64,000 nt of DNA from an uncultured bacterium. Lineage in GTDB: Bacteria; JAJVIF01; JAPKYR01. A program made the translations under genes and the position numbers. Location: contig CBDURU010000003.1 of the NCBI GenBank assembly GCA_965369865.1, positions 36,560 through 100,559 of the forward strand, written 5' to 3'. The notes beneath the pieces were generated by a model that saw only the letters and a program-made list of their open reading frames with translations, had not been told where the DNA came from and did no database searches. Below, in pieces: positions 3,265-31,293 of the stretch; positions within the stretch are counted from its first letter, which is position 1; each line of letters begins with the position of its first letter.

Positions 3265-3576
3265 CAGGTAAATTTTTTACACCCACCCATTCATCCTGGT
3301 CCGTTCAAAAATCGAACAAGAAAGCGTATCATCGGCAAGCCTGAAAATCAAATCGGATGGATTTCAAACAAGCCAAATCCTGATAGTCGTCAATGACGGC
3401 TATCTATACATATTATCGGCAGTGAATTGAAATTTTGGCGCGGTACGTACTTATGACGCATTAATTTCAGACAGTAAATGAAGGATCCTTATCCAATTAT
3501 GATTGCCCGGATTCACTCGCGGTGGTAATCTAACCCGATCTGACAATGTCCCTTTCCTTAACTAAGGCATCCATAC

Positions 3577-5415: not shown

Positions 5416-5498
5416 AGAATTTCATTAATTGGTATAATTTCAACGAACGCTGAAACTGGTATTATTAGTGGAAAAAGTGGACAATCTTTAACCAGACC

Positions 5499-7946: not shown

Positions 7947-7950
7947 AGGC

Positions 7951-13256: not shown

Positions 13257-15680
13257 CTATTCCTGTTTTGACGATTGATCGTTTATTTTTATATTGATAC
13301 TTCGATGAGTGATGAAAATCCCGATTACTACCCAGGCAAAAATACTGATCATCGCCACTGACATGCCCTCTTTCAAGCCTGGCATGAGGTAGCGAAATTC
13401 TACCGTATGCTCGCCGCTCCCGATCTCAACAGCCATCGCAAAATTCCCGTGCACTTTCATTTCACGCGCTTCTCCATCGACCTCAACCGTCCATCCGGGC
13501 GCATATCCTTCATTGAGAACGAGAAGACCGGGAAAATCATAGCGGGTCTCAGCCGCAAAAAATCCCGGTTCATCCAGTCTTATTTCAGGCTGGGATAATA
13601 AATTAGGATCGTTGCTCCCGCTCTCAACATATGCTTCATCAGATGGAATGATAGATAGCCTTGTCGGCGGTTGTGCTGTATAACCCGGTTGGTCATACAA
13701 GTCATAAACAAAAAAATTATCGCTCTCACTTTTTGGAATAAGACCCTCGATGCTGGAATCAGACAGGACATATCTGATACCCATGTCAAATAGCCTTCTG
13801 TCGTAAAGATCAACCGGGGGAGTGAAAAAAGCGATTCCACGCCGCTTGATGACTGACTCCTCCTGGATATCCCTGAGCAGATCAAACCGGGATTTCGGGA
13901 CAAGGTTGTGGTATCCAAAAGCGTCGGGTATCCCGAAGAACGTCCCAAGGTTCGGGTAAAAGTTGTATGGCTGGTCTTCCAGCGATGCAGGATTTGCCGA
14001 ATTGTTCGCGTAGCGGATGATCCGTCCCCATTGGCCACCAGCCTCCGGACTGATCATTCTTTGCAGGCTTTGGATCGTCTCGGTTGCAGGTATTGGATTT
14101 CTTGAATAAGGGGATTTGAAATCTGACAGGACGAATGTTCCTGACATGATTGCCGAGTATATGAAACAGGCCGATAGAAGGGTGATTCCGAAGTAAATGT
14201 ATTTTTTTGAGATGGTATAGAACGCCGAGAAGATTATCACCGCTCCCGCAATTGTAAGGACATACGGATCGCCAGTTGGGATTAGCAAGCTACGGTCTGT
14301 AAGAAGAATGCCCGCGAGCGCAATTACAATTCCAATTAAAGCGGGAATGAGCGCGACAGAGTGCGTCACGCCAACCGGTTTATCGAGCGCGGCGATTTTT
14401 TTCCAGTGTTTCACTCCGATCGCAGAGAATATCAGAATAATGAATCCCAATATCTCCAGGGGCTGTGTCGGTAGGATAAAGATCGCTCTCGTTGGGATGC
14501 TTAGAAGGTTATTCAATGTCGGGTTAAGAGCAAAAGGTGTGATTATCAGCGCGATAATTGCAAGTGATCTCGGAAAATCAAGTTGTCGCCAGTTAACTAA
14601 TCCCAAAAGCGCAAAGGTAAAAGGGATAACCCCGACATATCCGCTGTAATGGGGGTAATAAAATCCAAGCCTGAGTGGGAGAATTGGCTGCAGAAGACGC
14701 TGGAAATGATTCTGCCATGGTTCGGTGAATTGAAGAGCGGTCGTGTATTCCGTCATCATTTGCTGAAACGATTGGAAAGCGATACGGTCGCTTAGTGCTG
14801 AAGCCATAAGGGTCGGGATGTTCTGCACCATGGAAATCCCGAGACCTAGAATGAACGGCCATACCAGAATTTTTAGTGATGCTTTCCATGATGGTCTAAT
14901 AACGCGATCGATCATCCTTCCTCGAATGAAAAACCATACTGCGGTGAAAAGCCCAAAATGCACCAAAAGCGTTGGATAGCCTGCAAGTAGAGGAACTGAC
15001 CAGCATAGAGCCATCCATAATCCTGCCCACGGGTTTTGATGTTTCAGCCATCTTTCATGGAAGAACCATATTCCCGGGAAAAAGGCCATCGTCATCGGCC
15101 AGGGCTGGTAGTACGGGGTGGGAAGAAGGGAGACCACGAGAAAACTAGCTGCTGCCCATGATGCTATACGGCATGCGAGCCATTCCTTCAGAAAAAGATA
15201 AAAGAAAATCGCCATGATCAGGGTGTGAAGAACGCCCGATGCACCGAGAATCATAAGAGGCGGGAATAACCACGCTATAAGGGCATAAACAGGGTAGTAC
15301 ACCGGAACGAGATGATTTTGAAGTAAAGGGACTCCGCTAAGACAGTACGGGTCCCAGGCAGGGATATTTCCTTTACGAAGCTCGTCGTGCGCGATTTTAT
15401 TCCACGGGCTATACATCAAAACCGCGTCGAAATTCGTATGAAGGATATTGGGATCATCATGCCCAGAGAAGCCAAGTTCGCTATTCCAGGGTTCCAGTCG
15501 CTCCCATGAGTCGGGCATAACGGGTTTACCCAGCAGGAGCGGATAGTAAAGAGCGAGTCCCAGAAGAATCAAGCCTAGGATTGGAGCCAGATCAGCCAGA
15601 GCAAACGCCCTTTGGATTCCGGTTGTCTCTTTAAAACCAGTATTGTCTTTCTGATCGGACATCCGGGATGATTTTATCAC
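13257..15680 (-). CDS. YfhO-like polytopic membrane protein, paralog 3
   Basis: 807 aa. Many TM helices. C-terminus …NEGYAPGWTVEVDGEAREMKVHGNFAMAVEIGSGEHTVEFRYLMP plus a TM, matching the other two paralogs. GTG at 15680 or ATG at 15662. Confidence 0.5.
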   Translation of the reverse strand: MIKSSRMSDQKDNTGFKETTGIQRAFALADLAPILGLILLGLALYYPLLLGKPVMPDSWERLEPWNSELGFSGHDDPNILHTNFDAVLMYSPWNKIAHDELRKGNIPAWDPYCLSGVPLLQNHLVPVYYPVYALIAWLFPPLMILGASGVLHTLIMAIFFYLFLKEWLACRIASWAAASFLVVSLLPTPYYQPWPMTMAFFPGIWFFHERWLKHQNPWAGLWMALCWSVPLLAGYPTLLVHFGLFTAVWFFIRGRMIDRVIRPSWKASLKILVWPFILGLGISMVQNIPTLMASALSDRIAFQSFQQMMTEYTTALQFTEPWQNHFQRLLQPILPLRLGFYYPHYSGYVGVIPFTFALLGLVNWRQLDFPRSLAIIALIITPFALNPTLNNLLSIPTRAIFILPTQPLEILGFIILIFSAIGVKHWKKIAALDKPVGVTHSVALIPALIGIVIALAGILLTDRSLLIPTGDPYVLTIAGAVIIFSAFYTISKKYIYFGITLLSACFIYSAIMSGTFVLSDFKSPYSRNPIPATETIQSLQRMISPEAGGQWGRIIRYANNSANPASLEDQPYNFYPNLGTFFGIPDAFGYHNLVPKSRFDLLRDIQEESVIKRRGIAFFTPPVDLYDRRLFDMGIRYVLSDSSIEGLIPKSESDNFFVYDLYDQPGYTAQPPTRLSIIPSDEAYVESGSNDPNLLSQPEIRLDEPGFFAAETRYDFPGLLVLNEGYAPGWTVEVDGEAREMKVHGNFAMAVEIGSGEHTVEFRYLMPGLKEGMSVAMISIFAWVVIGIFITHRSINIKINDQSSKQE

Positions 15681-15848
15681 TTATGGGTATCAGTTACACC
15701 CAAGTGCCGCCCGCAGTTCGCCGCAGGCGAGATGTGGATGTCCGGAATATTTCCTATTTTTCCGAATCACCCAAATCCTGCGCTACGCTCGTATCAAGGC
15801 GCCACAGGTCTATTTAATTCTCAAATCTACGCTTGTTTAAGCTACCTG

Positions 15849-16922
15849 TTATTCCAGTTCTTCCTGCTGTTTGTTTTTCTTTTCCCTCGACTTTTTTACC
15901 CGCGTTTCCGCACTCTCATACGCTTCCACGATCAGTTGGACGAGCGAATGGCGGACGATATCAGTCTCATCGAGATTTACCAGCGCGATCCCACCGATGT
16001 GCGACAGGATATTCAACGCGTGCGCGAGTCCGGAGGTCTCCCGTGTGCCGAGATCGACCTGGCTTGGGTCGCCGGTAATCACCATCCTGGATCGGGGGCC
16101 CATCCTGGTCAGGAACATTTTCATCTGGCCCGCGGTGGTGTTCTGCGCCTCATCGAGAATAATGTAGCTTTTATTTAATGTCCTTCCACGCATATACGCG
16201 AGCGGTGCGATCTCGATGACCTCCCTCTCAATCAGGCGACGGGTTTTTTCAACGCCAAGCATTTCGTAAAGGGCGTCGTAAAGCGGACGGAAGTACGGGT
16301 CGACCTTGTCGAGGAAAGTTCCCGGCAGATATCCAAGGCTCTCACCGGCTTCGACCGCGGGTCGGGTCAGGATAATTCGCTGGACCGTTCCCCTGCTCAG
16401 AGTATTAACCGCCATAGCGACCGCGAGGTATGTTTTTCCGGTACCGGCTGGTCCCGCGCAGAAAGTGATGGCGTTATCCTTCATCGACTGGACATAATTG
16501 GCCTGTCCTTCTGTCCGGGGACGGATTTTGAGCAATCCACCGTTGATAACAAGTCCATCGAACGCATGATCGTTTTTTTTCGCAGGCGCCTGTTCTTCCA
16601 GGCCATCATCGAGAGGAATCTCCGTCTCAACTTCCCTGCTTCGCTCCTGGTGGTAGAATCGCTCGATATCATCCTCCGACAATTCATCGCCGGCCTGTGC
16701 CCTTTTTACGAGCAGACCGAGGAGTTGCTGAACGAGGGCGACCTCATTAGAAGGCCCGGTGATCCTGACCGACGATCCGCGCGGGACAACCCGTGCAGGG
16801 GTATTCTGCTGGATCACCCTGAGATTACGGTCCGCAACACCGAGAACCTGTACCGCTTCGAGATCGTTCCTGAAATGGAAAGTCAGAGTTGTAACTTCAT
16901 CGTCCTTAAGACGTTTTGCCAA
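15849..16922 (-). CDS. phoH: PhoH-like ATPase (PhoH/YbeZ family)
   Basis: 357 aa. Walker A GPAGTGKTYLAVAMAV. Conserved PhoH core (…ILTRPAVEAGESLGYLPGTFLDKVDPYFRPLYDAL…ILDEAQNTT…ITGDPSQVDL). TTG start with a GGAGGA RBS. Confidence 0.9.
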   Translation of the reverse strand: MAKRLKDDEVTTLTFHFRNDLEAVQVLGVADRNLRVIQQNTPARVVPRGSSVRITGPSNEVALVQQLLGLLVKRAQAGDELSEDDIERFYHQERSREVETEIPLDDGLEEQAPAKKNDHAFDGLVINGGLLKIRPRTEGQANYVQSMKDNAITFCAGPAGTGKTYLAVAMAVNTLSRGTVQRIILTRPAVEAGESLGYLPGTFLDKVDPYFRPLYDALYEMLGVEKTRRLIEREVIEIAPLAYMRGRTLNKSYIILDEAQNTTAGQMKMFLTRMGPRSRMVITGDPSQVDLGTRETSGLAHALNILSHIGGIALVNLDETDIVRHSLVQLIVEAYESAETRVKKSREKKNKQQEELE

Positions 16923-17032
16923 AATAAATCATCCTCCATAAATGAAAGCACCGTTCATCTATATTAGAATATTATCATATTTCCTGTATCAGCACGATTA
17001 CGTCTATTATTTTGAATACCAGGCATAATCCA

Positions 17033-20000
17033 TCAGTACAAATCGAAAACCTTGAGACCTCTTCCCCCGGTGCCAAGGTACAGGTAGCCGTCAAGTGTTA
17101 CCAGATCACTTGGCGCCCATGTCATACCATCATACAGGTAGCCAAGTTTGGCGGGACAATCGGGCGGCCAGATTGAACAAATTTCCGGAATTCGATAGAA
17201 GCCATACGCATACGCATAGTATCCATCGACATAAATTTCGCTCAGCCAGTTTACACCCGGAAGGGGCAGGGCGGCAACGTGCACGGGGACATCCGGATTG
17301 GTCAGGTCCGTAATTTGAAGCTCGCCACTAGTCATGATATACATTTTGGATCCATAAGAGGTCAGGTCATAATGAATGTCCAGCGAGTTAGAATATGAAC
17401 CAACATATGCAGGCGGCATCGGAGCGTCAGCGGTATAAATTTCTATGCTATTCTGCAAGGCATAATACATATTGGGGGAATAATACATGATGTCTCTGAC
17501 GGCCGAAGGAAAGGTGATCGAAGTTACATATACGGGTGCGGATGGAATAGCGACGGAATAAATTCTGACCGTTTTGGCCGGATCATTAATTGCGACATAA
17601 GCATGATCTCCCTGTAAAAGTATCTGATTGATATCATGTGTTTCAACGGTGTATGCCAGATCAGTGATTGCGAGCGGGTCAGTCGCGTCGTTCAGGCTCC
17701 AGTGCTTGCCGCCGGCGGTCATGAGTAAGTTCTGGTCCAGAGACATATCCCTCAGGACATCATTCACCCAGAATTCAGCGGCGACATATACATTGGCGGG
17801 GTTGGAAATATCAATGGTTTTAACAGCCTTATTGTAATCGACAACCAAGAGGTATCCATCTTTAATGACAAGTGATATGCAGTAATTAACGACTTTCTGC
17901 CGTGACAGTGAAGGAGATCCTGGCGGGTTGATGCTGAAAATTTCAAGACCCTGGCTGTTGGGAATGATGTAAGCATAGTCCCCAACCGCGGCTACATCCT
18001 TACCATCGGTCACCATCGGGACAGTGCTGTCGTATTGTGGATTATCCGGATCGGTCGCATCGCAGACCGAAAAGCCGGCGGGTCCATCTCCGATTGTCAC
18101 ATACGGCCAGGAAATATCAATACTCCTGGCGGTTCCCGGTACGTTAACGCTTCCTTTAGGAGTCAGGATATTCGTATTGAGGATGTGTGTATAGCCCTGA
18201 TGGACAATCGTGTCATAAACGGCGGTATAGATATACCCATCGTTGACAACAGTTTCCTGGATCACATTATTCGCAGGATAAGTGTGTGTCGCAAGTAATT
18301 GGGGGTTTAATGGATCTTCGATAAGGTATGAATAAAGTTCATTGTAGATCGTCATTAAGAGGGATGTTGCGGGTCCTTCAGGATCCATGAGATCCAGATC
18401 ATCACAACTGTAAGGTGCGACGAAGTTATGAAGTTCGATCGGATTCGTGGGATCTGAAGAGATGTCATAGAACAACAAGTAATAATCCCCCATAGGATTG
18501 TCGAACCACGATAAATACAGGTGGGTTGAATTCGAGCACATACTGTATAACAGGGACCAGGAATCAAAGGTGATAATATCAGGATAAGAAACCGGTGCTT
18601 CAGGAGTTGTCAGATCCAGCAAGGAAAGATCATTGTTGTCGCTGTAGTAAAGATACGGATAATTAAACGTGGCATAATCATTTATGGTGTAATCAAAAGC
18701 CTGCAGGAACAAGGGATTCGAAGGATTCGAGATATCGTAAATCCAAAGCCTGTCTCCCCCCATGATCGCGTAATTGTCATGAATCCAGATGAAGGTCGGC
18801 TCAAGAAATAATCCGTCCGGAGTGATATCTACCGGGTTATCCGGGGACGCGAAAGGCCCGGTCAGTTTCAATACATAAGGTGCGATCTGGGAAGGGTTAC
18901 TAGTGTAAACACGAATGAAATACTGCCCCGTTTCCATGCCTGGATCAGACAATGGGATGGTTGCAGAACCTCCAACGACATCATCTTCGCTTACAAGCGT
19001 ATGCGTGCTGTCATATAATCCCACCTTAGTCAGGGATACATCGCAGAATAGTTCAATTTTCGCATCGTAAGCATAACCGCCAGTGATCTGAAACTCGTAA
19101 AAATCCTTGTAATCATTCGGGAGACATACCTGGTCATATATTTCAGAATCGAAACTGACAGGAAAAGCTTCCATGAAGTCATTGTTAGCGTCGGGGTCAC
19201 AGGTAACCTCCGGGATATCGAGAATGAGTGTCTGCCAAGCAGCGACAGAAGTATCCGGGGCCGGATAGGTAAACCCCTGGTTGTAATCAGGTCCGCCCGC
19301 TGATTTTACTTTCACGGCAACAAGGACCTCCCCTGCCGAGGCGGGTAAAGCGGTGCCGGTGAGATCGGCAGTGTAAGATGCTTTCAGAGCGGTTTGTGAA
19401 TCGAAAATCGCACTAACTCCACCGGGGAACAAATCGGGCGAAAAAATCCTCACGCTCTCAACCTGTGCAGCGATGTCGCCCAGAGCCTGTCCCTGCCAGT
19501 CATGGACATTTAATTTCAATTGAAGGACGCCACCACCGACCCCATTATCAACATCATAGTAAAGGGTGTTGACCTTATCGACTAATACAAGATTGAAAGC
19601 TTCGGGTTGATTGGCTTCAATGGGAAAATCATCCGGAACCTCAAGCGGAGGATTAGGTGCCGGTAAGGCCCAGCAGGCATCGATTACATACGAGAATCGA
19701 AAATCGGGTGCAGGAAGCATCGGGAAGCGAACATTGTAGCGTCTTGTGTTAGCGGTCCCGGTGGTGAAAACACCCCTGCCCATATCGTTGTTCAGTGGTT
19801 CTAAAAAAACAGGCTGCAGACCTTCCAAATTATCAAGGATATCTGCGAAATACCGGTACGGGTTAACCGACGCGGTCAGTTCGGCACCGGGAGTATTTGC
19901 AAACTGGTTTTCGATGTACCCGAAAACACCGGATTGAGTAAATTCTGCAGGATTCCACCAGCGCGTGAACCCGTCGGCATTTTCAAGTTGGGTTTCATCG

Positions 20001-20440
20001 ACATCGGAGAAAAATAATGAACCGATCGGGAGAGTTCCCGGAGCCATTACGATGCCTTTAACATCAAAAATTGTGAACTCCGTTTCGGTGTCGAACGGGT
20101 GGGTGAGAGTAAAATCGACAACAAAAAGACCGTTTGGCGGGTCCGATTGCCCCGGCGGCAGAACGACAGACAGGCTGAAAGTGTCGATGAAGATTTTCGT
20201 CAGGTTGAAGTGGAAATCTGTAGACCTGTCCGGGATTGTATTAACCTGATTGGTCCCGGCCTTGATAACTATGTCGTACGAGCCCAGCATTTGATGGTTA
20301 TTCACATTACTGCTGGAATTTGTTAATCCTGAATCCTGGCCGGTGCTCACTGAGGGTGTTACCGGATTTTTCGAGCATCCCGGAGATGCAAACACGCCAG
20401 CCAGTAAAAAAATAATTAGAGTCAGGGCGATTCTGTTCAT
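17033..20440 (-). CDS. Giant surface lipoprotein, array copy 4 (most downstream on the minus strand). Architecture: conserved N-terminal module, PPC domain, LVIVD-like beta-propeller.
   Basis: 1135 aa. Signal peptide with Cys22 (…LAGVFASPGCS). The N-terminal ~380 aa is shared with the three upstream genes and with 47591..49537. PPC-like segment CDPDANNDF…DYKDFYEF…GQYFIRVYT…YVLKL. The C-terminal half has repeats such as GDYAYIIPNSQGLEIFSINP and DGYLYLGTGGRGLKVFDLY. GGAG RBS. Confidence 0.7.
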   Translation of the reverse strand: MNRIALTLIIFLLAGVFASPGCSKNPVTPSVSTGQDSGLTNSSSNVNNHQMLGSYDIVIKAGTNQVNTIPDRSTDFHFNLTKIFIDTFSLSVVLPPGQSDPPNGLFVVDFTLTHPFDTETEFTIFDVKGIVMAPGTLPIGSLFFSDVDETQLENADGFTRWWNPAEFTQSGVFGYIENQFANTPGAELTASVNPYRYFADILDNLEGLQPVFLEPLNNDMGRGVFTTGTANTRRYNVRFPMLPAPDFRFSYVIDACWALPAPNPPLEVPDDFPIEANQPEAFNLVLVDKVNTLYYDVDNGVGGGVLQLKLNVHDWQGQALGDIAAQVESVRIFSPDLFPGGVSAIFDSQTALKASYTADLTGTALPASAGEVLVAVKVKSAGGPDYNQGFTYPAPDTSVAAWQTLILDIPEVTCDPDANNDFMEAFPVSFDSEIYDQVCLPNDYKDFYEFQITGGYAYDAKIELFCDVSLTKVGLYDSTHTLVSEDDVVGGSATIPLSDPGMETGQYFIRVYTSNPSQIAPYVLKLTGPFASPDNPVDITPDGLFLEPTFIWIHDNYAIMGGDRLWIYDISNPSNPLFLQAFDYTINDYATFNYPYLYYSDNNDLSLLDLTTPEAPVSYPDIITFDSWSLLYSMCSNSTHLYLSWFDNPMGDYYLLFYDISSDPTNPIELHNFVAPYSCDDLDLMDPEGPATSLLMTIYNELYSYLIEDPLNPQLLATHTYPANNVIQETVVNDGYIYTAVYDTIVHQGYTHILNTNILTPKGSVNVPGTARSIDISWPYVTIGDGPAGFSVCDATDPDNPQYDSTVPMVTDGKDVAAVGDYAYIIPNSQGLEIFSINPPGSPSLSRQKVVNYCISLVIKDGYLLVVDYNKAVKTIDISNPANVYVAAEFWVNDVLRDMSLDQNLLMTAGGKHWSLNDATDPLAITDLAYTVETHDINQILLQGDHAYVAINDPAKTVRIYSVAIPSAPVYVTSITFPSAVRDIMYYSPNMYYALQNSIEIYTADAPMPPAYVGSYSNSLDIHYDLTSYGSKMYIMTSGELQITDLTNPDVPVHVAALPLPGVNWLSEIYVDGYYAYAYGFYRIPEICSIWPPDCPAKLGYLYDGMTWAPSDLVTLDGYLYLGTGGRGLKVFDLY
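18851..19207 (-). other. PPC (bacterial pre-peptidase C-terminal)-like domain inside array copy 4. Approximate boundaries, residues ~412-530.
   Basis: DANNDF…DxxDFYxF…(G)xYxxRVxxxxxxxxxYxL pattern characteristic of PPC domains. An equivalent segment occurs in the other three array members (e.g. CHGDANNDFADAF…DYRDFYFF…). Confidence 0.5.
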
Positions 20441-20501: not shown

Positions 20502-23500
20502 TCAATACAGGTCATAGATACTTAAACCAGTATCCCCGGAAGCCAGGTAAATAAGATCATCTACAATAACCATATCGGTTGTATAGTAACCATGATCTCC
20601 GAACAGTATTCCCAGGTTGACCGCTTCTTCCGGCGGCCACACATTACATAGATACGCAGGGGAAAGTCCACTTGCGTAAGCGAACTGCCCGTCAACCTCA
20701 ATTTCCATTAAATAGGAGGGTGGCCCCGATGTAAGCAGAACGGAATTTATGAACGTTGGATTGAGCATATTGCTCGCGTCGACAATCTCAATCCTGTCAA
20801 GCGCCGCAATATACATTATGTCATTTTGAACAATCGCCTTCGTTGGCACGTTGGATGGGGTGTAAGTAGCGACATGATTAGGCAGTGCGGGATTCAGAAG
20901 TGAGTATATCTCAAGGTTACCGCTGGGAATTATCATGTCATCCCCGTAAAAAGAAATACTTGCGGGATTTGTACCGGGGAGGGTGATTGTGTTGACCAGG
21001 ACAGGGGGATCGAACATGTTCAACTCGAAGATATGCAACGAGGCAAACCCGGCTTCCGTTGTTATGTAAAGATAATCATTGTAAATGTTCATGGTCCGGG
21101 TCGGGTTGGGAAGCGAACCGGAGGCGATCTGTGTAATTAAGGCGGGATTGCTGACATTAAGGAACTCCCAGCCATTAGTGCCTACCAGGGCGGCCATGCG
21201 TCCGTTATCATAAGCCAGGAAATTAATCTTTCCTAATGATGTCAGGTATTCGGTTTCGAGGAAAATATTTTCGGGATCGGAGATGTTTACAATTTTAATC
21301 GCATGGTAGCCAAATGAAAATTCAGCGGTATATAAGTAGTCTCCATCGATAAAAATCATACCAGCCTGGTTAAGGACTTCGAGCCGTCCCAGGTCCTGGG
21401 GTGAAACCGGATTGCTGACATTAAAAACCTGCATTCCCGCATCATAGGGAATAATGCAAAGAATATCTCCATTTACCGCAAGGTCAATGCCGATGGAAAC
21501 CAGGGGTACCGATGTAAGCAGGATTGGTGATCCGGGATTTGTCAAATCTATAGTGGCCAGGCCGCCAGTATGATCGGCAATGTATGCGTACGGCCATTCA
21601 GCGTCAATGCCACACGCTAATCCGGGAGTTGCGGTTTCTCCAAGTTCGCTGAAACCACCAATTAAATCGAACTCGAGAATGAACATGCTTTCTGTAATAT
21701 TCGGATTGGTGCCTGTGGCAATTACATATTTATCGCTGAGGGCAAAATCATAGATGGCCGCGGTTGAATGATTGTCCAGATATATAGTTGATGATGGGTT
21801 CTCAACATCAATAGCGGTAAAATTATTCTCACTCGCGCTTATGAGGATCGGTTTGGTGGCTTCGGGATACATGAGATCGAGTTGTCTGACATCTATGATC
21901 GGGCTTCCAAAGGAGCCTGCCTCAAAAGGGTAAAGAGGGTCGGTCGACCAGTTAAAGATTGTGTACTGTGTTGCTACCGGGTTATCGAAATCAGCCACGT
22001 ACAGGTGTGATGAATTCATGCAGATATCGCCGACGTCATACCCGAGGTAAGCAACGTTTTCGTGAAATACCGGGTTGGATTTATTGCTGACATCGATCAT
22101 GTTTATCTGGCCCAGCTCAGGCTCGGGGTAAGAAATGTAGTAAATGAAATTACCATAATGAGCCGATATGATTTTGGGGCCGAAAGAACCTCTTATTTTA
22201 AAAACCTGGACAGGGTTCGATGGAATTGTCATGTCGTAGATCCAAAAGAACCTGCTGTTCAATAAATATATGTAATCACCTTCCCACCAGATTTTGTATG
22301 GGTTGACATATAAGCCGCTGCCGGTAAGCACGACAGGATTGGGGGTCATATCGGTGGCAATGACATTAAAATCCAGTTCGTATGGGGCAAGTTCGGTAGG
22401 ATTGGATGTATAAACCCTGAGGTAATATATATCCGGCATCAGGTTGAGTGAATCGACATCAATAGAAGCAAGGCCGGCAGCTACAACGCTTTCAATAATA
22501 AGGCCTTGATCGGGATCGTAAAGCCCGAGTTTGGTGGGACCGGCATCGCAATGCAGATCCACATGACCCGACACTTCGAATCCGGATGGTATTTCAAAGA
22601 AATAGAAATCCCGGTAATCATCCGGGAGGCATACCTGGCCGTCGATCGTAGAACCGTAATTGATTTCAAATGCATCCGCGAAATCGTTATTCGCGTCGCC
22701 ATGGCAGTTAAGGTCGGGAATATCAAGAATCAGAGTTTGCCATGCGGCTAATGGTGCAGTGGGTGCAGGATATGACAGCCCCTGGTCGTATGCCGGTCCT
22801 CCGGACGAAACAACTTCGACAGCGAGTAAACATTCTCCGGCCTGCGCGGGATTTGCAATACCGGTAAGGTCGACCGTGTATCGCGCTTTGACAGGAGTCT
22901 GATCAAGATATGCCATTTCGATTCCACCGGGAAATAAATCGGGCGCATAGACCTTCACGCTGCCGACCTGCGACGCAATATCACCGCTGTCCTGACCCTG
23001 CCAGTCGTGGACATTCACCTGTAGTTTGAGGATCCCGGCTCCAGTCCCGGAATTACTGGAATAGTAGAGAGTGTCCGCTTTTTTTGCCAACGCGAGATGA
23101 AAAGCTTCTGGCTGGTTAGCTTGAATCGGGAAATCATCGGGCACAGCGGATGGTGGATTGGGATCGGGTATTGCCCAGCATCCGTCTATAACATAAGAAA
23201 ACCTGAAATCCGGAGACGGTAACATCTGGAATTTTACGATGTACCGGCGTGTATTGCTGCTGCCGGTTTTAAACACACCCCTCCCGTTGTTACTGGTAAG
23301 CGCCTCTGAATAAACAGGCTGCATACCGTCGGTCGGGTCGAGGATATCGGCGAAATATTTATACGGATTGATATTAGCAGTCAGCAGGCCGCCGGTTGTA
23401 TTTGTAAACAGGCCGTCCATGTAGCCGAAAATGCCCGGCTGGGTGAATTCTGTTGGATTCCACCATCGTGTGTACCCATCCGCATTGTCAACCCGGGTCT

Positions 23501-23945
23501 CAGAGGGTCCGGTAAACATCGCGGAGCCAATGTTGAGCGTCCCGGGCGTCATCACGATTCCCTTTACATCAAAAATAGTGTACTCAGTCTCGGTAGTGAA
23601 AGGGTGAGTAATCGTGAAATCAACGGCAAAGACCCCGTTAGGAGGATCGGACTCGCCTGGTATTAATGCGATAGACAGGTTTAGCGTATTTACAAAAATT
23701 TTCGTCAGGTTGAGATGGAGATCCGATGATCTATTGGGCAGAATTTCCGCTTCCATGCCGACCGGGTCCAAAGAAATATCATAGGAACCCAGGCACAGAT
23801 GGTTTAATTGATTGCCCTGTACCAGGTTTTGAGGCTCTCCCAGGATTAACCCGGGATCGGGTGTCGATGGATTTCCATGACAACCCTGGATTGCTACTAG
23901 AATGATCGTAAAAATTAGTACCAGCCACGGAAATTTCCGGCTCAT
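20502..23945 (-). CDS. Giant surface lipoprotein, array copy 3
   Basis: 1147 aa. Signal peptide plus Cys (…VAIQGCHGNP). Conserved N-terminal module (LGSYDISLDP…NLTKIFVNTLNLSIALIPGESDPPNGVFAVDFTITHPF…NADGYTRWWNPTEFTQPGIFGYMDG…), a PPC-like segment, and a divergent LVIVD-like C-terminal half ending DTGLSIYDLY. GAGGTG RBS. Confidence 0.7.
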   Translation of the reverse strand: MSRKFPWLVLIFTIILVAIQGCHGNPSTPDPGLILGEPQNLVQGNQLNHLCLGSYDISLDPVGMEAEILPNRSSDLHLNLTKIFVNTLNLSIALIPGESDPPNGVFAVDFTITHPFTTETEYTIFDVKGIVMTPGTLNIGSAMFTGPSETRVDNADGYTRWWNPTEFTQPGIFGYMDGLFTNTTGGLLTANINPYKYFADILDPTDGMQPVYSEALTSNNGRGVFKTGSSNTRRYIVKFQMLPSPDFRFSYVIDGCWAIPDPNPPSAVPDDFPIQANQPEAFHLALAKKADTLYYSSNSGTGAGILKLQVNVHDWQGQDSGDIASQVGSVKVYAPDLFPGGIEMAYLDQTPVKARYTVDLTGIANPAQAGECLLAVEVVSSGGPAYDQGLSYPAPTAPLAAWQTLILDIPDLNCHGDANNDFADAFEINYGSTIDGQVCLPDDYRDFYFFEIPSGFEVSGHVDLHCDAGPTKLGLYDPDQGLIIESVVAAGLASIDVDSLNLMPDIYYLRVYTSNPTELAPYELDFNVIATDMTPNPVVLTGSGLYVNPYKIWWEGDYIYLLNSRFFWIYDMTIPSNPVQVFKIRGSFGPKIISAHYGNFIYYISYPEPELGQINMIDVSNKSNPVFHENVAYLGYDVGDICMNSSHLYVADFDNPVATQYTIFNWSTDPLYPFEAGSFGSPIIDVRQLDLMYPEATKPILISASENNFTAIDVENPSSTIYLDNHSTAAIYDFALSDKYVIATGTNPNITESMFILEFDLIGGFSELGETATPGLACGIDAEWPYAYIADHTGGLATIDLTNPGSPILLTSVPLVSIGIDLAVNGDILCIIPYDAGMQVFNVSNPVSPQDLGRLEVLNQAGMIFIDGDYLYTAEFSFGYHAIKIVNISDPENIFLETEYLTSLGKINFLAYDNGRMAALVGTNGWEFLNVSNPALITQIASGSLPNPTRTMNIYNDYLYITTEAGFASLHIFELNMFDPPVLVNTITLPGTNPASISFYGDDMIIPSGNLEIYSLLNPALPNHVATYTPSNVPTKAIVQNDIMYIAALDRIEIVDASNMLNPTFINSVLLTSGPPSYLMEIEVDGQFAYASGLSPAYLCNVWPPEEAVNLGILFGDHGYYTTDMVIVDDLIYLASGDTGLSIYDLY

Positions 23946-23996: not shown

Positions 23997-26900
23997 CTAG
24001 TACAGATCGTAAATCCTCAGACCGGAACCTAAGTGCATGACATATAAAATCCCGTCTTCAACAAGGAGATTCAGAATAAACCCATAATTATTAGGACCGA
24101 ATGGCTCACTGTAGACGGCAGGCGTTTCGGGCGGCCACAAATTTACAATTACCGGATTATGTCCCATGTCAGAAACATAGGCGAACTGGTGTTCTACAGC
24201 CATAAATTGCATATTGGGTGCATATGGTAATCCGGTGTACCAAATAGCAACAGGTTGCCCCGAACCATCGAGTTCTACCGTTTCAAAGTAATCGGTATTG
24301 CAGACATAAAGGTAATCGTTCTGTATCGCGATATCCCGCACGGTTGCTGTCGAGGTGAAATCGCCAACATATACCGGGATCAGGTTTGATGTGATATCAA
24401 CAATTTTCACATCATCGAGCGCGTACGCATACAGGTAGTCTAAATCGGTTGACAGGGTTAACCCATGAAGTTCAGAAGTCCATGATGGATCAGGGACAGG
24501 GATCACACCAGGAAAAGTAGCCAGGTCGTAAACCTTGATTGTGCCGTTCGATAAGGTGGCATAAGCAGCCCAGTATGTGACTGCGACTGATTGCACGTAC
24601 GAGGGAAAAGTCTCTGAATACGCGAGTACCGGGTTGTACAGGTCTGTGCACTCGTACAGCGAGAATTTTTGATCGAGTGTTCCGACAGCCAGAATATTAT
24701 GTGCCCCCAGGTACAGTGCCATGCACATTGGTGAATCATCAAGCAAAACTTCCCCTTCTATGGTTGGGTTAGCGGGATCGGTCAAATCAAGGATTTTAAT
24801 AGCGTTATAGGATCCCCCTGATTCAATGAAATACCCTGTATCCCACCTGATCCTTCCATCAACAGGAATGTTAAGGCAAAGGACCCTGGCTGTTTCGGTC
24901 AGGAGAATCGTGTCTGATGCGTCATAAATTGAAAAACCGGCGTGTTCAGGGATATTCAGTAATTTATCCTGGTCGATCAGAATACTACATGATTCCGATA
25001 CAGTGGGAACTGTGCTGTTGATTGCCAGCGCTGAGAGGTTTGAAAAATCGACCACTGTAATTCCTATATTGTCAGCGATATATGCAGTATTTACCTTGGC
25101 GTCGATATTGTAACCGTACCCGGGGATAGGCAGTACATCCTTTGGAGAGAAGCCCAGCAGGTCGAGGTATGTATAGGATGAGATATAACCATCGGGAACC
25201 CCGTCAATATGTGTTTTCAAAATCTCGTTACCTACAATTGCTATATCAAGATTATACGTACCAAGCGCCGCAGGATGTGTGGCTTTTAATACTGGCAAAA
25301 CAGGATTTTCGACGTTGTATGCTCTCATGTCCTGACTTGTCATAACGATCAGGGCGGTTACGGGACCATCTGTATCGTATATGCCAAGCTTTAAAACGTT
25401 GTGCTGGCAATTAAAGTGGTTAATTTCCTGCAGATCGAGCGGGTCGGTGTAATCGTAAATATATATCCATGAACCCACCCCATCATCGAAAGCGATAAAC
25501 ATATACTCTGAATCAATCGTAATAAATTCGATTTGGCCTGGCAGTGACAGGATGTTCTCATGGAGAACCGGGCTGGATGGATTGCTGTAATCAACCATGT
25601 TAAGTATTGCAGGATTTTCAGTCCATCCTCCCCAGTAGTAAACCCTTCCATCGTATTCCGCAGGGGTCGCCCCCACCTGATCGTAGATTCTGGACAGAAA
25701 AACAGGATTGTAGAGATCGCTGGTGTCATATGCCCATGAACCCCTGGGTCCGGTCAGGATTGCAGTATCACCATGTGTTGTCAGCCAGCTTGCATCAAGG
25801 TCAAGGTTGTTTGGAGTAATGTCAACAGGATTTATTGGGGTGATATTTACCGTTTCAAGGTCCAAATTCAACTGGTATAAAAATGGATTCGGCTGAGATG
25901 ATTCTGTAACCTCAAGGTAATACCAACCGGGATCGGGCTTCCACCCGACAAGTTCTAATTTCACAACTCCATTGTTAGGGGTGTCTCCATCAAGAAGGTT
26001 TAAGTCCTGATCCCACAGAATCAACTTGGAAGTGGGCACATCGGAATATAAATAGACCCAGCCGTCGATATGGGTACCGGGTAGAATTTGAAACATGTAA
26101 AAATCGGAACTGTCGACAGAACTGCACAAGGTTCCAATCACCGTGTCCTGGAACGAAACCAGCTCCGCTTCAAGATGTGAATTGTTCGCATCCCCGACGC
26201 ATTCAGGATCGGTTATATCAACGGTAATGACCTGGTAGGCTGAGATATCAGCCGAGGGGGCGGGTGCCGTGCCCTGCTGGTAACTCGGTCCACCTTTGGA
26301 ACCAACCCTTGCGACAACCTGTGCCTGACCGGCATGTGTCGGAACAGCCAGGGAATATAAATCAGAAGTGAATCTGGCTTTGAAGTCATTTTGATCGAGG
26401 AAGGTTGCAGTGACACCGGTGCCCATTAAATCCGGAGAGAAAATCCGGACAGCATCAATCTGGTTCTCAAAATTTCCCGCCATCTGTCCCTGCCAGTCAT
26501 GGACATTTATCTGGAGTTTAAGTATTCCACCCCCGGTAGCGGTCTCAATGTCATAGTAGAGAGTGTTGATTTTTTCAGCCAGTGCAACATGATATGCTTC
26601 AGGCTGGTTCGCCTCGATCGGGAAATCGCTTGGCACGTCATCAGGCGGGTTCGGAACCGGGAGATCCCAGGAACCATCAATTACAAACGCAAACTTAAAA
26701 TTGGGTGTAGGCGTCATCTGGAACAAAACCTCGTATCTCCTGGTGACGAAGCTTCCCGGAGTAAAAATACCTCTGCCCTGGCTGCTGGCGAGATGTTCCA
26801 AGTAGACAAGGTTCATTGGGTCCTCAGGGCCGAGAATATCGGCAAAATATTTATATGGGTTAACCGTCGCTGTGAGCTGTCCACTTTCAGCATTAGTGAA

Positions 26901-27431
26901 CAGCCCATCCGTGTAACCGAAAATACCCGCCTTGGTGAATTCAGTCGGGTTCCACCACCGGGTATAACCATCAGCATTCAACACCTGGGTTTCATTGGTA
27001 TCCGAGAACATCGTTGCTCCGACCGCGAGTGACCCAGGGACCATTACGATGCCTTTAACATCGAATATGCTGAACTGGATCTCAGTTGTGAATGGATGTG
27101 TGAGTGTAAAGTCCACAACAAACAATCCGTTTGGGGGGTCCGACGCACCCTGGTCGAGTACGACTTCCAGGTTCATGGTGTCCAAAAAGATTTTTGTAAG
27201 GTTCAGATGCAGCTCACCGATCCGAAGCGGGATTGCTTCGATTGACATATCCAATGGATTGATCTCGATATCATAGGCGCCAAGATTGATGCGATTACCA
27301 GTGCTTGATTGATCTTTTAAAGACCCTGCAGGATCCCCGGTTGAAGGACTTGCAGGATTGCCCTGGCAGCCAAGTGAAACTATTAGCAAAAGAATTACTA
27401 CCAGTGAGAAAAATGTTCGTTGCTGATACAT
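23997..27431 (-). CDS. Giant surface lipoprotein, array copy 2
   Basis: ORF-track start is 27446. The first Met codon sits inside the AAGGAGG RBS, so the start is more likely the Met at 27431 (MYQQRTFFSLVVILLLIVSLGCQGNP). Conserved N-terminal module, PPC-like segment (CVGDANNSHLEAE…DSSDFYMFQ…GWYYLEV), divergent propeller-like C-terminus ending GSGLRIYDLY. Confidence 0.7.
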   Translation of the reverse strand: MYQQRTFFSLVVILLLIVSLGCQGNPASPSTGDPAGSLKDQSSTGNRINLGAYDIEINPLDMSIEAIPLRIGELHLNLTKIFLDTMNLEVVLDQGASDPPNGLFVVDFTLTHPFTTEIQFSIFDVKGIVMVPGSLAVGATMFSDTNETQVLNADGYTRWWNPTEFTKAGIFGYTDGLFTNAESGQLTATVNPYKYFADILGPEDPMNLVYLEHLASSQGRGIFTPGSFVTRRYEVLFQMTPTPNFKFAFVIDGSWDLPVPNPPDDVPSDFPIEANQPEAYHVALAEKINTLYYDIETATGGGILKLQINVHDWQGQMAGNFENQIDAVRIFSPDLMGTGVTATFLDQNDFKARFTSDLYSLAVPTHAGQAQVVARVGSKGGPSYQQGTAPAPSADISAYQVITVDITDPECVGDANNSHLEAELVSFQDTVIGTLCSSVDSSDFYMFQILPGTHIDGWVYLYSDVPTSKLILWDQDLNLLDGDTPNNGVVKLELVGWKPDPGWYYLEVTESSQPNPFLYQLNLDLETVNITPINPVDITPNNLDLDASWLTTHGDTAILTGPRGSWAYDTSDLYNPVFLSRIYDQVGATPAEYDGRVYYWGGWTENPAILNMVDYSNPSSPVLHENILSLPGQIEFITIDSEYMFIAFDDGVGSWIYIYDYTDPLDLQEINHFNCQHNVLKLGIYDTDGPVTALIVMTSQDMRAYNVENPVLPVLKATHPAALGTYNLDIAIVGNEILKTHIDGVPDGYISSYTYLDLLGFSPKDVLPIPGYGYNIDAKVNTAYIADNIGITVVDFSNLSALAINSTVPTVSESCSILIDQDKLLNIPEHAGFSIYDASDTILLTETARVLCLNIPVDGRIRWDTGYFIESGGSYNAIKILDLTDPANPTIEGEVLLDDSPMCMALYLGAHNILAVGTLDQKFSLYECTDLYNPVLAYSETFPSYVQSVAVTYWAAYATLSNGTIKVYDLATFPGVIPVPDPSWTSELHGLTLSTDLDYLYAYALDDVKIVDITSNLIPVYVGDFTSTATVRDIAIQNDYLYVCNTDYFETVELDGSGQPVAIWYTGLPYAPNMQFMAVEHQFAYVSDMGHNPVIVNLWPPETPAVYSEPFGPNNYGFILNLLVEDGILYVMHLGSGLRIYDLY

Positions 27432-27461
27432 GTATTCCTCCTTCAAATTTCAAATTATTAA

Positions 27462-30400
27462 TCAGTACAGGTCCCAGATTCTTAATCCGAAACCTGAAGC
27501 ACGTTCGTAGTAATAGCCGTTATTAATTAAAACCTGGTTTGGTTTTACCTCGAAATCGGTACTATATAATGGGCCTATAACTGTTGGTGCATCGGGAGGC
27601 CAAATTCTCATTACCGTTGGTGGAGTCCACCAGTAGGGTTGACAAATAGCGAACTGGTTATCGACCGCAAGGTACTCTCCGTGTGGAGCATCAGGATGAG
27701 TTTCATGGGAAAGGTATACAGGTGATTGCGGAATGGAAATATCCGCAATTTCGAGAGTGTCACTGGTAGCTATGATCAGGTAGTCACCATACACCTCGAT
27801 ATTTTTAGCGTAGCTCAGAGGTACGTATGTTACCTGGTAAATCGGGTTGAGTGGATTAACAATCGAGTAAACAAGGATTTCACCACCGGCAAGCACATAC
27901 ATTATGTCACCTTTGAATTTAATACTCATTGGGATGCTGGTAGTAGCCAAACCGGTTTGATATGTTAACAATGTCCAAACCGACAAATCCCATACACTGA
28001 TCTGTGGTACGTTATTACCGACATATAATGCGTCCCCATTTAAGGCAAGGCAGGAAACATCGCTGGCGGCTGCGTACGGTCCATCCACCGTCATGGACCA
28101 AGGGTCGGGGCAATCAATTGCCAAGAGGAAAGGACCGCTCGTGGCGACTATCAGTCGATCCCCGTCTACTGCAATCCTTGACGGGTCATAATCGATTCTC
28201 TGCACCATGGTTAAAGCCGCATTAGCAGGATTGCCAATATTAAACACTTTAATTGCGTGGTATAGATTGCTGGATTCGATGGTATACAGGTAACTGCCGC
28301 TTATGACCATATCTTTGGGACTGGCCAGTCCGACGACACTCCCGGAACCGGTAACACTAAAGGGGTCGCCAATATCATAAGTGATCACCCCTGCCCTTCT
28401 ACACGCAGTGTAAAGCGTTCCATTCTCAAAGACTATATCACCAATATTTATTGGCAGGGGAAACGAGAGATTACCCCAAAATAATGGGAGATCCGGATTC
28501 GTAACATCAATAATCGAAATAGTTTCATCGCTGTTTAGACACAATGCGTAATTCCCATCTGTCTCTACAATGTTGGTTTCCTGGAACAGCAGGATGTTAC
28601 CGCCAGCGGTTATACCTCCAGTCTCAATTTTTAATGAACTGAAGTAATATTGCCAGGTAGAAGTGGATTGGCGGAGGACGAAGACGTAATTATCCCTGGT
28701 ACAGATGTCGATTATGTCCATATTCGTCCATGTGAAGACATCCGGTTTCGGGATCGAACTTTTGTCAGTGACATTGAAGAGATCAAGCCTTGCATTGTCA
28801 TACAAAACCGCAAGCCAGTAATCAGGTCCGACGCTATCGTTCACGAAATCAAGTTGATCGGGTTGACCGTTGATGGCAAGTTTGTGGATAAGCTCGGGTA
28901 CTTCTGGATTGTTGAAAATATAGTATATATCGATCGCGAAACCGGGGCTCGAATTGTAAGCTACGTAAAGGTAATCCGTTTCCCTCGCTATACAGTATAC
29001 GGCGGTTGTGTAATGCAATACATCAGGATACAGGACCTCATTTGTCGGGTCGGTGATATCGTACATTTCAATATTTGTATCACCTGGGCTTAATTCATGG
29101 ACAGAATAAATTTCGGTTATGCTGAAAGCCGGGTGTTCACTGTTGTAGATTTCAAAAAAGTTAAGGAATTCTGGTTGCAGTTTGTCTGTATGGTCGTAGA
29201 TCCAAACGCCGCCTTCAGTTTCTGTAAACACGAGGTCACCGGCAACAGCAATTTGTTGCGGGTAAAAAAACAGATCTTCGGGAGTCACATTAACCGGGTT
29301 ATCGGGAGTTACATTCGTAAGATAAATATCCGGTTCGATCATATACAGGAATGCCTGGCCTGATGTCTGGGTCAGCACCCGAACATAATATTCACCCGGC
29401 ATAATTCCCAGTAAAAATAGATCAATCACCGCGTATCCGCCTGATACAGCTTCCTCGTATATCAGAGATTCAGTATCGTCGTAAAGGCTGAAAGTAGTCG
29501 GTTCAGCATCACAGAAAAGTGTCAGGTCGCCATATACATCGCTACCAAGCGGCAGCGACAACAGGTAAAAGTCCTTGTAATCACCGGGCGCACATAACTG
29601 ATCGATTGTCGGATTCTCGAGGTCGAGAAGTAATGCCTCGCTGAAATCGTTATTTGTATCAGCCGAACACTCCGGGTCGGGAATGTCCAGGATCAATGTT
29701 TCCCATGCAGCGACCGAATTATCAGGTGCCGGATTGCCGGTTCCCTGGTCGTAATTCGGACCGCCTGCCGATGTCGCCTTCACGGCCAGAAGAGTTTCTC
29801 CGGAATGTGTTGGCGCGGCGATTCCAGTCAGATCGGCTGTATACCTTGCCTTGATCTCGAGTTCGTCCATGAACAATGCATCTGCTCCGCCTGAGAAAAG
29901 GTCCGGAGAATATATCCTTACGCCGTCAATTTCCGCCGCGATCGCGGCCGCATTCTGCCCCTGCCAGTCATGAACATTCACCTGCAGGCGAAGGACACCA
30001 CCGCCTGTACCCGATTCACTGTCATAATAAAGTGAATTGACTTTATCAGCGAGTACTAAGTCATATGCTTCAGGCTGGTTCGCCTCGATTGGAAAATCAT
30101 CAGGAACCGCATCTGGCGGATTCGGGACTGGTATATCCCAGCAGCCATTGATCACGTAACCGAATAATATGGTCGTAGCAGGTGCACCCGGAAAACGGAG
30201 GTTGTATCTCCTCGTGTTGCTGGCTCCATCTGTGAAAACCCCCCTGCCCATATCGTTATCAAGTGGTTCATAATAGACCGCGCTTAAAGGGTCTTCGGCG
30301 CCAAGGATATCCGCGAAATATTTATACGGGTTCACAGTCGCCGTAAGCTGGCCGGCGGTAGTATTAGTAAACAAGCCGTCCGTATATCCGAATATGCCCG

Positions 30401-30908
30401 GCTGGGTGAATTCTGTTGGATTCCACCATCGAGTATACCCGTCGGCGTTTTCGAGACGTGTTTCACCCGCATCCGCAAATAGCAGGGGTCCGATATTCAA
30501 TGTTCCGGGGGTCAAAACAATTCCCTTCACATCAAATATTGAGAATTCATTCTGTTCATCTAACGGGTGGGTCAATGTGAAATCCAGAACGAACAGCCCG
30601 TTCGGAGGATCGGACAGGCCGGGGATAACCACAATGTCAAGGCCCATCATATTTACGAAAATTTTAGTCAGGTTAAGGTGGAGATCGCTTGACCTCAGCG
30701 GCAGGATTTCGACAGTCGAATCCCGGGTGTTGAGTTCAACCAGGTACGATCCAAGGCTGTGGTGGGACCTGACATCAGACTGTGATTCCCTTGACGTTAA
30801 ATCGGATTGCTGCTGGATATCCGGCGATGCCGGGTGTCCCTGGCATCCGATCAGCACGATTATGCTAAAAAGAACCAGAATTATCAGGGGATTTTGCGAA
30901 CGATACAT
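27462..30908 (-). CDS. Giant surface lipoprotein, array copy 1 (first gene of the array)
   Basis: ORF-track start is 30950. I prefer the Met at 30908 (MYRSQNPLIILVLFSIIVLIGCQGHP) because a strong AGGAGG lies 6 nt upstream. Same module order as the other copies, C-terminal …SGFGLRIWDLY. A ~385-bp untranslated leader lies upstream. Confidence 0.7.
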   Translation of the reverse strand: MYRSQNPLIILVLFSIIVLIGCQGHPASPDIQQQSDLTSRESQSDVRSHHSLGSYLVELNTRDSTVEILPLRSSDLHLNLTKIFVNMMGLDIVVIPGLSDPPNGLFVLDFTLTHPLDEQNEFSIFDVKGIVLTPGTLNIGPLLFADAGETRLENADGYTRWWNPTEFTQPGIFGYTDGLFTNTTAGQLTATVNPYKYFADILGAEDPLSAVYYEPLDNDMGRGVFTDGASNTRRYNLRFPGAPATTILFGYVINGCWDIPVPNPPDAVPDDFPIEANQPEAYDLVLADKVNSLYYDSESGTGGGVLRLQVNVHDWQGQNAAAIAAEIDGVRIYSPDLFSGGADALFMDELEIKARYTADLTGIAAPTHSGETLLAVKATSAGGPNYDQGTGNPAPDNSVAAWETLILDIPDPECSADTNNDFSEALLLDLENPTIDQLCAPGDYKDFYLLSLPLGSDVYGDLTLFCDAEPTTFSLYDDTESLIYEEAVSGGYAVIDLFLLGIMPGEYYVRVLTQTSGQAFLYMIEPDIYLTNVTPDNPVNVTPEDLFFYPQQIAVAGDLVFTETEGGVWIYDHTDKLQPEFLNFFEIYNSEHPAFSITEIYSVHELSPGDTNIEMYDITDPTNEVLYPDVLHYTTAVYCIARETDYLYVAYNSSPGFAIDIYYIFNNPEVPELIHKLAINGQPDQLDFVNDSVGPDYWLAVLYDNARLDLFNVTDKSSIPKPDVFTWTNMDIIDICTRDNYVFVLRQSTSTWQYYFSSLKIETGGITAGGNILLFQETNIVETDGNYALCLNSDETISIIDVTNPDLPLFWGNLSFPLPINIGDIVFENGTLYTACRRAGVITYDIGDPFSVTGSGSVVGLASPKDMVISGSYLYTIESSNLYHAIKVFNIGNPANAALTMVQRIDYDPSRIAVDGDRLIVATSGPFLLAIDCPDPWSMTVDGPYAAASDVSCLALNGDALYVGNNVPQISVWDLSVWTLLTYQTGLATTSIPMSIKFKGDIMYVLAGGEILVYSIVNPLNPIYQVTYVPLSYAKNIEVYGDYLIIATSDTLEIADISIPQSPVYLSHETHPDAPHGEYLAVDNQFAICQPYWWTPPTVMRIWPPDAPTVIGPLYSTDFEVKPNQVLINNGYYYERASGFGLRIWDLY

Positions 30909-31293
30909 TTTATGCCTCCTAATCCGGAACATCTCAGTTCGGATAGACATTAGTTGGATCTAACAATTTTTCCCGAGGATTAAAACCGTAAAGCTTGATA
31001 AAATCAGGGGGTCCTGGCTCGTCATATCGCAATAGCCCGTTGATATGATCCTCCATGAAACCATATTTCATTGTATTGAAAGAAAGTTTCAATACATTAT
31101 GAAGCTTTAAGTCACCAGTAGTCAATTGAAATATTGATATATGGAAAATTCCTGTCGTGTCCCGTTCAGGGATTAGAAATGGCCTTGCGGGGTATTCGCC
31201 TTCGCTGTGTTGTAATTTATACTTGCATTTTAAGACCGTTATGTATTATTATGCATAACGACTTGTACGGATTGTGACCCGATTAATTAAGGA

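Follow-up and report, generated by a model that had tools for sequence, protein, structure and literature searches.

Five open reading frames (ORFs) in a 64,000-nucleotide stretch of contig CBDURU010000003.1 from an uncultured bacterium, hereafter referred to as the window, share a homologous N-terminal module of ~370 aligned residues. This module is an autonomous, strongly constrained two-sandwich domain; it constitutes the constant portion, next to the anchor, of a greatly expanded family of lipoproteins whose heads are interchangeable. Its autonomy had been proposed in an initial annotation of the window from the different C terminus of the shortest paralog (47591..49537), and it is borne out by two observations: many complete family members of ~395 amino acids (aa) are lipoproteins that consist of the module without a tail, and the module precedes C-terminal tails that form at least 28 unrelated clusters (tails of at least 100 aa were clustered). 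Clustering and Pfam searches also showed that the tail of the shortest paralog is indeed unrelated to the tails of the other four proteins. With respect to function, we infer an envelope or surface location, a role in binding rather than in catalysis, and the identity of the partner.

Five copies of the module in the window

Four of the copies are encoded by an array of genes (W1 to W4) that are co-directional on the minus strand, with gaps of 15 to 61 nt, and that code for proteins of 1135 to 1162 aa each. The fifth copy (W5) is not linked to this array. The ORFs and modules are as follows.

27462..30950, minus strand: W1 ORF, array gene 1
23997..27446, minus strand: W2 ORF, array gene 2
20502..23945, minus strand: W3 ORF, array gene 3
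17033..20440, minus strand: W4 ORF, array gene 4
47591..49537, plus strand: W5 ORF, 648 aa
29652..30761, minus strand: W1 module, aa 64-433 (hmmsearch envelope with the family hidden Markov model [HMM] and alignment)
26187..27290, minus strand: W2 module, aa 53-420 (alignment and family HMM)
22689..23798, minus strand: W3 module, aa 50-419 (the modelled copy; AlphaFold2 models and conservation profile)
19178..20293, minus strand: W4 module, aa 50-421 (alignment and family HMM)
47732..48865, plus strand: W5 module, aa 48-425 (divergent; alignment and family HMM)

An HMM scan of all window ORFs of at least 80 aa retrieved exactly these five copies and no sixth. The homology is far beyond chance, since matches elsewhere reached E values down to 1e-130. 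The initial annotation was therefore right in assigning one shared N-terminal module to five proteins, but it placed the module at 27462-30100, an interval that overlaps with only the last ~150 module residues and otherwise corresponds to the middle domain and the LVIVD propeller. Because the array genes are on the minus strand, the W1 module is located at high coordinates.

A series of sequence blocks had also been described as invariant in all five copies. The W1-W4 modules are 55 to 63% identical, and the blocks are near-invariant among them, although W1, W2 and W4 depart from them at some positions; the substitutions include THPL in W1, NADGFT in W4, and the variants YVINGCWD, FVIDGSWD and YVIDACWA. 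The W5 module is only ~28% identical to the array copies and does not show most of the blocks; its equivalents read NITRLI, SDILAGKLVFDLGLSHPL, NPDGHSRWWNQ, LNPYKLHTPSL, RTYKMQF and IGDWQAT; near-invariance of the blocks thus holds for four genes, not five. W5 retains the residues D126, N154, D156, W161, N163, N193, R233, W257 and E280 (W3 numbering, used throughout), which are invariant across the family.

Since four of the five copies are adjacent and co-directional, their resemblance might simply stem from recent tandem duplication or gene conversion, in which case it would not indicate a functional unit. Identity among W1-W4 falls from 60% in the module to 37% in the middle domain and 24% in the propeller. 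The rate of nonsynonymous substitution (dN) is about 1.0 in the propeller, compared with 0.27 to 0.36 in the module, synonymous sites are saturated throughout (proportion of synonymous differences, pS, of about 0.8), and the longest identical nucleotide run is at most 38 nt. Since synonymous sites are saturated and long identical runs are absent, the conservation of the module is attributable to purifying selection rather than to recent duplication or gene conversion. W1-W4 are old paralogs, and their module is under strong purifying selection. The duplication hypothesis also conflicts with the wide occurrence of the module, which was found in 2,847 clusters (50% identity) and numerous metagenome-assembled genomes (MAGs), and with W5, which lies outside the array and carries a tail of another kind; we consider this hypothesis refuted and its probability negligible.

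The longest ORFs of W1 and W2 start with an ATG at 30950 and a TTG at 27446, which adds 14 and 5 residues, respectively, before an internal Met (30909..30950 in W1 and 27432..27446 in W2, minus strand). In the alignment, the other paralogs begin at this Met, which makes 30908 and 27431 the probable true starts.

Domain architecture and abundance of the family

W1-W4 share the same domain order, consisting of a signal peptide with a lipobox, a Ser/Gly/Pro tether, the module, a middle domain of ~135 aa and ~600 aa of LVIVD repeats. The features outside the module are illustrated by W3 and W5.

23880..23945, minus strand: lipoprotein signal peptide of W3, ending in the lipobox IQG-C22 (read from the translation)
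22299..22709, minus strand: W3 middle domain, aa 413-549 (PDB profile search; counterparts in W1, W2 and W4)
20505..22298, minus strand: C-terminal LVIVD-repeat beta-propeller region of W3 (Pfam PF08309)
48836..49534, plus strand: C-terminal tail of W5 (tail clustering)

In all five window proteins, a hydrophobic h-region is followed by a lipobox (LIGC, SLGC, IQGC, SPGC and LLAC). Judged at the level of this pattern in the translations, i.e., a signal peptide ending in [LVI][ASTVI][GAS]-C, these proteins match signal peptidase II lipoproteins. Among 196 members of the family, the module was present in a single copy and, where that end of the protein is present, at the N terminus, with a median start at residue 48. 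A lipobox was detected in 224 members, and the tether between its Cys and the module spans 23 to 34 residues (median of 26).

The tails that Pfam can name comprise beta-propellers of the LVIVD, SBBP, PQQ_2/BamB-like, Kelch, PD40 and BNR_2 types, PKD domains and right-handed Beta_helix domains; another tail type showed weak similarity to HExxH zincins. Since most tails are binding or scaffold folds and a few are enzyme-like, the module is expected to play a role that does not vary with the head. Lipoproteins composed only of SBBP repeats, without the module, were found in the same MAGs (1764..3515 of locus L071 and 1276..2877 of locus L034), indicating that heads also exist independently of the base.

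In the array proteins, the PF08309 scores of W3 (43.2 bits) and W4 (29.2 bits) were above the cut-off of 20.2, and those of W1 (18.3 bits) and W2 (19.3 bits) were just below it; the mutual identity of the four propeller regions is only ~24%. The middle domain showed a weak match (E = 4e-3 to 1.5e-2 over ~100 of 138 positions) to the PPC-type collagen-binding beta-sandwich of clostridial collagenases in a PDB profile search, and no Pfam match at E <= 5, PF04151 included. It contains two conserved Cys residues and a DFY motif in W1-W4. The W5 tail, which clustered with the tails of P0029, P0032, P0036, P0040, P0085 and P0162, had no Pfam match and matched weakly to the IFT52 GIFT domain in PDB (E = 9e-4).

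The abundance of the family became apparent at several search depths. A single-sequence search retrieved 52 relatives, all of which are hypothetical proteins from metagenomes or MAGs. A profile search among 1.84 billion cluster representatives identified 2,847 clusters (50% identity), all of them without a name, at E <= 1e-3 and 1,436 at E <= 1e-30, and many of the representatives have ~1145 aa, similar to the products of the array genes. In a database of 5.8 billion sequences, at least 493 relatives were detected; none of the names of the best 120 of these 493 describes the module, and two proteins are called BamB, after their propeller tails. The GTDB species representatives contained 286 matching stretches, and the best 80 of these came from about 10 MAGs that carry the label "Planctomycetota bacterium" or "bacterium." One of them, CSMAG_1386, shares 95% identity with W3.

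Expansion within genomes is equally pronounced. Tandem arrays of up to five family genes are common in the loci retrieved, and one MAG contains at least 45 distinct family genes, followed by others with 22 and 19. We found the family only in uncultured bacteria. The window transketolase has a best match with 95% identity, then one with 77%, and then matches to various phyla at ~60%, and this drop indicates that the source is a deep lineage without close named relatives, which, judging from record titles, has been recovered from sediment and soil metagenomes. Given that it comprises 2,847 or more clusters (50% identity) and that one genome contains at least 45 of its genes, the family seems to account for a major share of the envelope proteome in this lineage.

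Predicted fold, conserved residues and possible role of the module

The initial annotation had recognized no Pfam family for the blocks, and dedicated searches agree with it. The module regions of the five window proteins had no Pfam or NCBIfam match at E <= 0.1, and when 27 diverse members were compared with Pfam at E <= 5, every family that appeared was matched by a single member; one of these permissive matches corresponded to a tail repeat (SBBP). The precomputed Pfam domains of the relatives listed (the 52 relatives and the best 120 of 493) were tail-type families throughout. PDB sequence profiles gave no significant module match, nor did a fold match to a protein of known structure cover most of the module. 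Matches to heparin lyase I (E = 0.38, 66 residues) and to PsaN (E = 0.037, short) were taken as chance, and the module could not be assigned to the beta-jelly-roll polysaccharide lyases (e.g., heparin lyase I and PL13). It was also excluded as a C-terminal sorting domain, such as the C-terminal domain (CTD) of the type IX secretion system (T9SS), PEP-CTERM or LPXTG: such domains are C-terminal and comprise about 30 to 100 residues, and the module is N-terminal, has ~370 aa and starts at around residue 48. In the literature on LVIVD, lipoproteins and Planctomycetota, we found only the original LVIVD repeat paper and no description of the module. By the tools used, the module thus appears to be unrelated to any curated family or solved structure.

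Conservation was assessed for 210 members with less than 70% mutual identity. Fourteen residues are conserved in all 210 sequences (N79, P115, D126, G129, N154, D156, W161, N163, F167, N193, R233, W257, E280 and G304), and about 19 further residues are conserved to at least 96% (G53, R72, H77, F125, G157, R160, W162, P164, E166, Y175, G178, K196, R222, F225, Y251, F272, A276, N277 and D314). The overall identity within the family is only 25 to 35%. Because the same putative site is conserved in paralogs with unrelated heads, it would serve either one common partner or ligand, or one chemistry.

AlphaFold2 was run on the W3 module with an alignment of 47 sequences. The model of the whole module (predicted local distance difference test [pLDDT] of 85.1, predicted template-modelling score [pTM] of 0.84) is almost wholly beta and shows, in module numbering, an N-terminal hairpin, a poorly modelled segment at residues 23-36, a first sandwich (D1) up to residue ~233 and a second domain (D2). 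D1 (W3 ~aa 50-282), which was also modelled alone (pLDDT of 83.7, pTM of 0.79), is a decorated beta-sandwich with long, confidently placed loops, and its core resembles type 2 carbohydrate-binding modules (CBM2) as well as E-set and immunoglobulin (Ig) sandwiches. D2 (W3 ~aa 283-419) is an Ig-like sandwich. Nearly all invariant and near-invariant residues are in D1, and D2 is weakly conserved. In the model, the conserved blocks would sit mainly in the decorating loops, and no solved structure appears to account for them.

A motif of the form P70-x-R72-x4-H77-L-N79-x3-F-L was noted at W3 aa 70-84 (23693..23738, minus strand), with equivalents in the other four copies. Its R, H and N are conserved in the family to 99, 96 and 100%, respectively, and it is located in the sole low-confidence segment of both AlphaFold2 models (pLDDT of about 36 to 67). 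This segment could be partner dependent, a lid or a processing site. We also considered an intramolecular isopeptide bond, which would involve K196 together with Asn and Glu, and putative autoprocessing of the Asn or GPS type at H77-L-N79.

We tentatively favor, as quite a plausible possibility, that the module is a non-catalytic, constant, anchor-proximal lipoprotein base with one common binding site and variable heads. This preference is based on the predominance of binding and scaffold folds among the heads, the Ig/CBM-like core, the uniform tether, and the consideration that at least 45 paralogs with identical active sites in one genome would be unusual. In this scenario, the type II signal peptide would be cleaved and the lipobox Cys lipidated, and the uniform Ser/Gly/Pro tether of ~26 residues would keep a rigid two-sandwich unit near the membrane. 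The long ordered loops of D1, which hold almost all of the invariant polar and aromatic residues, would make up a single interaction site, identical in all paralogs, that recognizes a shared component of the envelope or a shared ligand, most likely a glycan of the cell's own envelope. The Ig-like D2 would act as a spacer that leads to the variable head, i.e., an LVIVD, SBBP, PQQ-, Kelch-, PD40- or BNR-type propeller, a PKD, beta-helix or zincin-like domain, or no head at all.

Several points weigh against this proposal. Our analysis identified no partner or ligand of the module, and neither three context look-ups nor the ORF clustering of 77 related loci revealed a partner gene consistently linked to the family. 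The clustering of the invariant residues in one site is putative, and some of the polar ones may have a structural role in stapling the long loops onto the sandwich. Both a surface and a periplasmic orientation are possible. The remaining points are those that would be expected if the module were a new catalytic domain, namely, a beta-sandwich hydrolase, lyase or peptidase with an active site formed by the invariant Asp, Glu, His, Arg and Tyr of D1, and with PKD/PPC-like linkers and propellers as appended substrate-binding domains. At an overall identity of 25 to 35%, many of the 14 invariant and about 19 near-invariant residues are charged or polar, and the charged and polar conserved set includes R72, H77, H114, D126, D156, R160, E166, K196, R222, R233, D254 and E280; an invariant set so dense in Asp, Glu, His, Arg and Asn fits an enzyme at least as well as a docking domain. 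In secreted enzymes, PKD and PPC-type domains are usually preceded by the catalytic domain, the position of which would here be occupied by the module, and the order of signal peptide, module, PKD/PPC-like domain and binding domain would resemble that of many secreted enzymes, as exemplified by architectures of the clostridial collagenase type. Module-only proteins are common and would be more readily understood if the module were functional in its own right, and the same putative site is kept in every paralog. However, the heparin lyase I match is at chance level, some tails are already enzyme-like (HExxH zincin-like, beta-helix and BNR), so that there is less need for a second catalytic domain, and so large a set of paralogs with one active site would be unusual, as mentioned above. 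We therefore consider a catalytic module possible but rather unlikely.

The base with a common binding site also has to be weighed against a lineage-specific sorting, surface-display or lattice-forming domain, which would be recognized by a translocon or self-assemble into a surface layer and carry the heads as cargo, in functional analogy to T9SS CTDs, SLH domains, dockerins or Slam-dependent lipoprotein domains. Such a function is in accordance with a module that stays constant while its cargo is of at least 28 kinds, with a uniform tether length and with dozens of paralogs per genome, as well as with the location of the conserved R72-x4-H77-L-N79 in the only poorly modelled segment, which would be expected of a partner-dependent interaction segment. 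On the other hand, with ~370 residues and two domains, the module is far larger than known sorting signals, no translocon or partner gene was linked to the family in the context look-ups and the 77 loci, and module-only proteins would carry no cargo, so that we regard this function as distinctly unlikely.

Taking the more far-reaching outcomes together, it seems fairly improbable that the module represents a new class of beta-sandwich enzymes or the recognition and anchoring element of an undescribed lipoprotein surface-display system. If the latter were true, dozens of heads would dock via one invariant site, possibly involving the R-x4-H-L-N segment, and a deep uncultured lineage would possess, at the N terminus, a counterpart of T9SS CTDs, SLH domains or dockerins. 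Whether it serves for docking or for catalysis, the site would give new insight into the construction or use of the cell surface in this lineage, and an invariant putative site common to paralogs with unrelated heads is a concrete handle for experiments. The boundaries, invariant residues, fold class and architecture range provided here amount to a domain definition that would allow thousands of "hypothetical proteins" to be annotated together. What has been demonstrated so far is a large and cleanly defined family.

Comparison with known systems and genomic context

The SusE/SusF-type surface glycan-binding lipoproteins of Bacteroides consist of an Ig-like base and distal binding domains. The family resembles them in the lipobox Cys, the short flexible tether, the membrane-proximal beta-sandwich, the distal binding domains and the multiple paralogs per genome. 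It differs in that we found no sequence relationship or specific fold relationship, no linkage to TonB-dependent transporter loci in the contexts examined, heads that are beta-propellers and not CBMs, and a base of two domains (~370 aa) in which 14 residues are invariant.

With respect to the fold, the neighbors of the D1 core are Ig-like sandwiches of the CBM2, E-set and chitinase N-terminal types (PDB 3ndy_E, 5dhe_B and 8ovr_A). The C-terminal beta-barrel pair of transglutaminases (PDB 3ly6_A and 8oxv_A) and Legionella DUF4785 (PDB 4kh9) covered less than 40% of the module with Foldseek TM-scores of at most 0.23; these are non-catalytic accessory domains that share no motifs with it. PPC and collagen-binding domains of clostridial collagenases (PDB 1nqd, 4hpk and 5sv5) align with nearly the full length of the ~135-aa middle domain, but this likeness is weak, is not accompanied by a match to Pfam PPC, and concerns the middle domain and not the module. 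Likewise, the similarity to LVIVD-repeat proteins (PF08309), a repeat originally reported from cell-surface proteins of archaea and bacteria (Adindla et al. 2004, PMC2447325), is limited to the C-terminal halves of W1-W4, and the module is also found with many other tails or with none. The fold class (a decorated beta-sandwich plus an Ig-like domain) and the modular logic of envelope lipoproteins are familiar, but the family itself is unannotated.

The neighbors of the family genes in the window are ordinary chromosomal genes, among them those for a LysM-NlpC/P60 protein, a CLC channel, three YfhO-like membrane proteins, a transketolase, PhoH, modA-like and modC-like proteins, MoeA, MoaA, an acetyl-CoA synthetase-type ligase, a Band 7 protein and chorismate synthase. 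A scan of the array for promoters and terminators gave the same counts as shuffled sequence. Across the loci, recurrent neighbors were additional family, LVIVD or SBBP genes, and modC/moeA synteny was observed in the closest MAGs. The YfhO-like proteins by the array are paralogous membrane proteins of the GT-C type.

5499..7946, plus strand: YfhO-like (GT-C type) membrane protein
7951..10440, plus strand: YfhO-like (GT-C type) membrane protein
13257..15680, minus strand: YfhO-like (GT-C type) membrane protein

Such genes were located near family genes in four genomes, namely, that of the window and three other MAGs (e.g., 15789..18359 of locus L032 and 6264..8789 of locus L061), which may reflect a link to the glycosylation of Ser/Pro-rich tethers or mere conserved synteny.

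A secreted HEAT-like ORF of ~200 aa was observed directly downstream of family genes in four MAGs, with the following examples; no equivalent was found in the window.

5782..6381 of locus L052: HEAT-like ORF
6619..7212 of locus L045: HEAT-like ORF
5139..5720 of locus L043: HEAT-like ORF

A HEAT_2 protein is also encoded near the standalone member P0048 (11952..13034 of locus L075). Finally, the contig of one relative encodes LptF/G, which suggests a diderm envelope.

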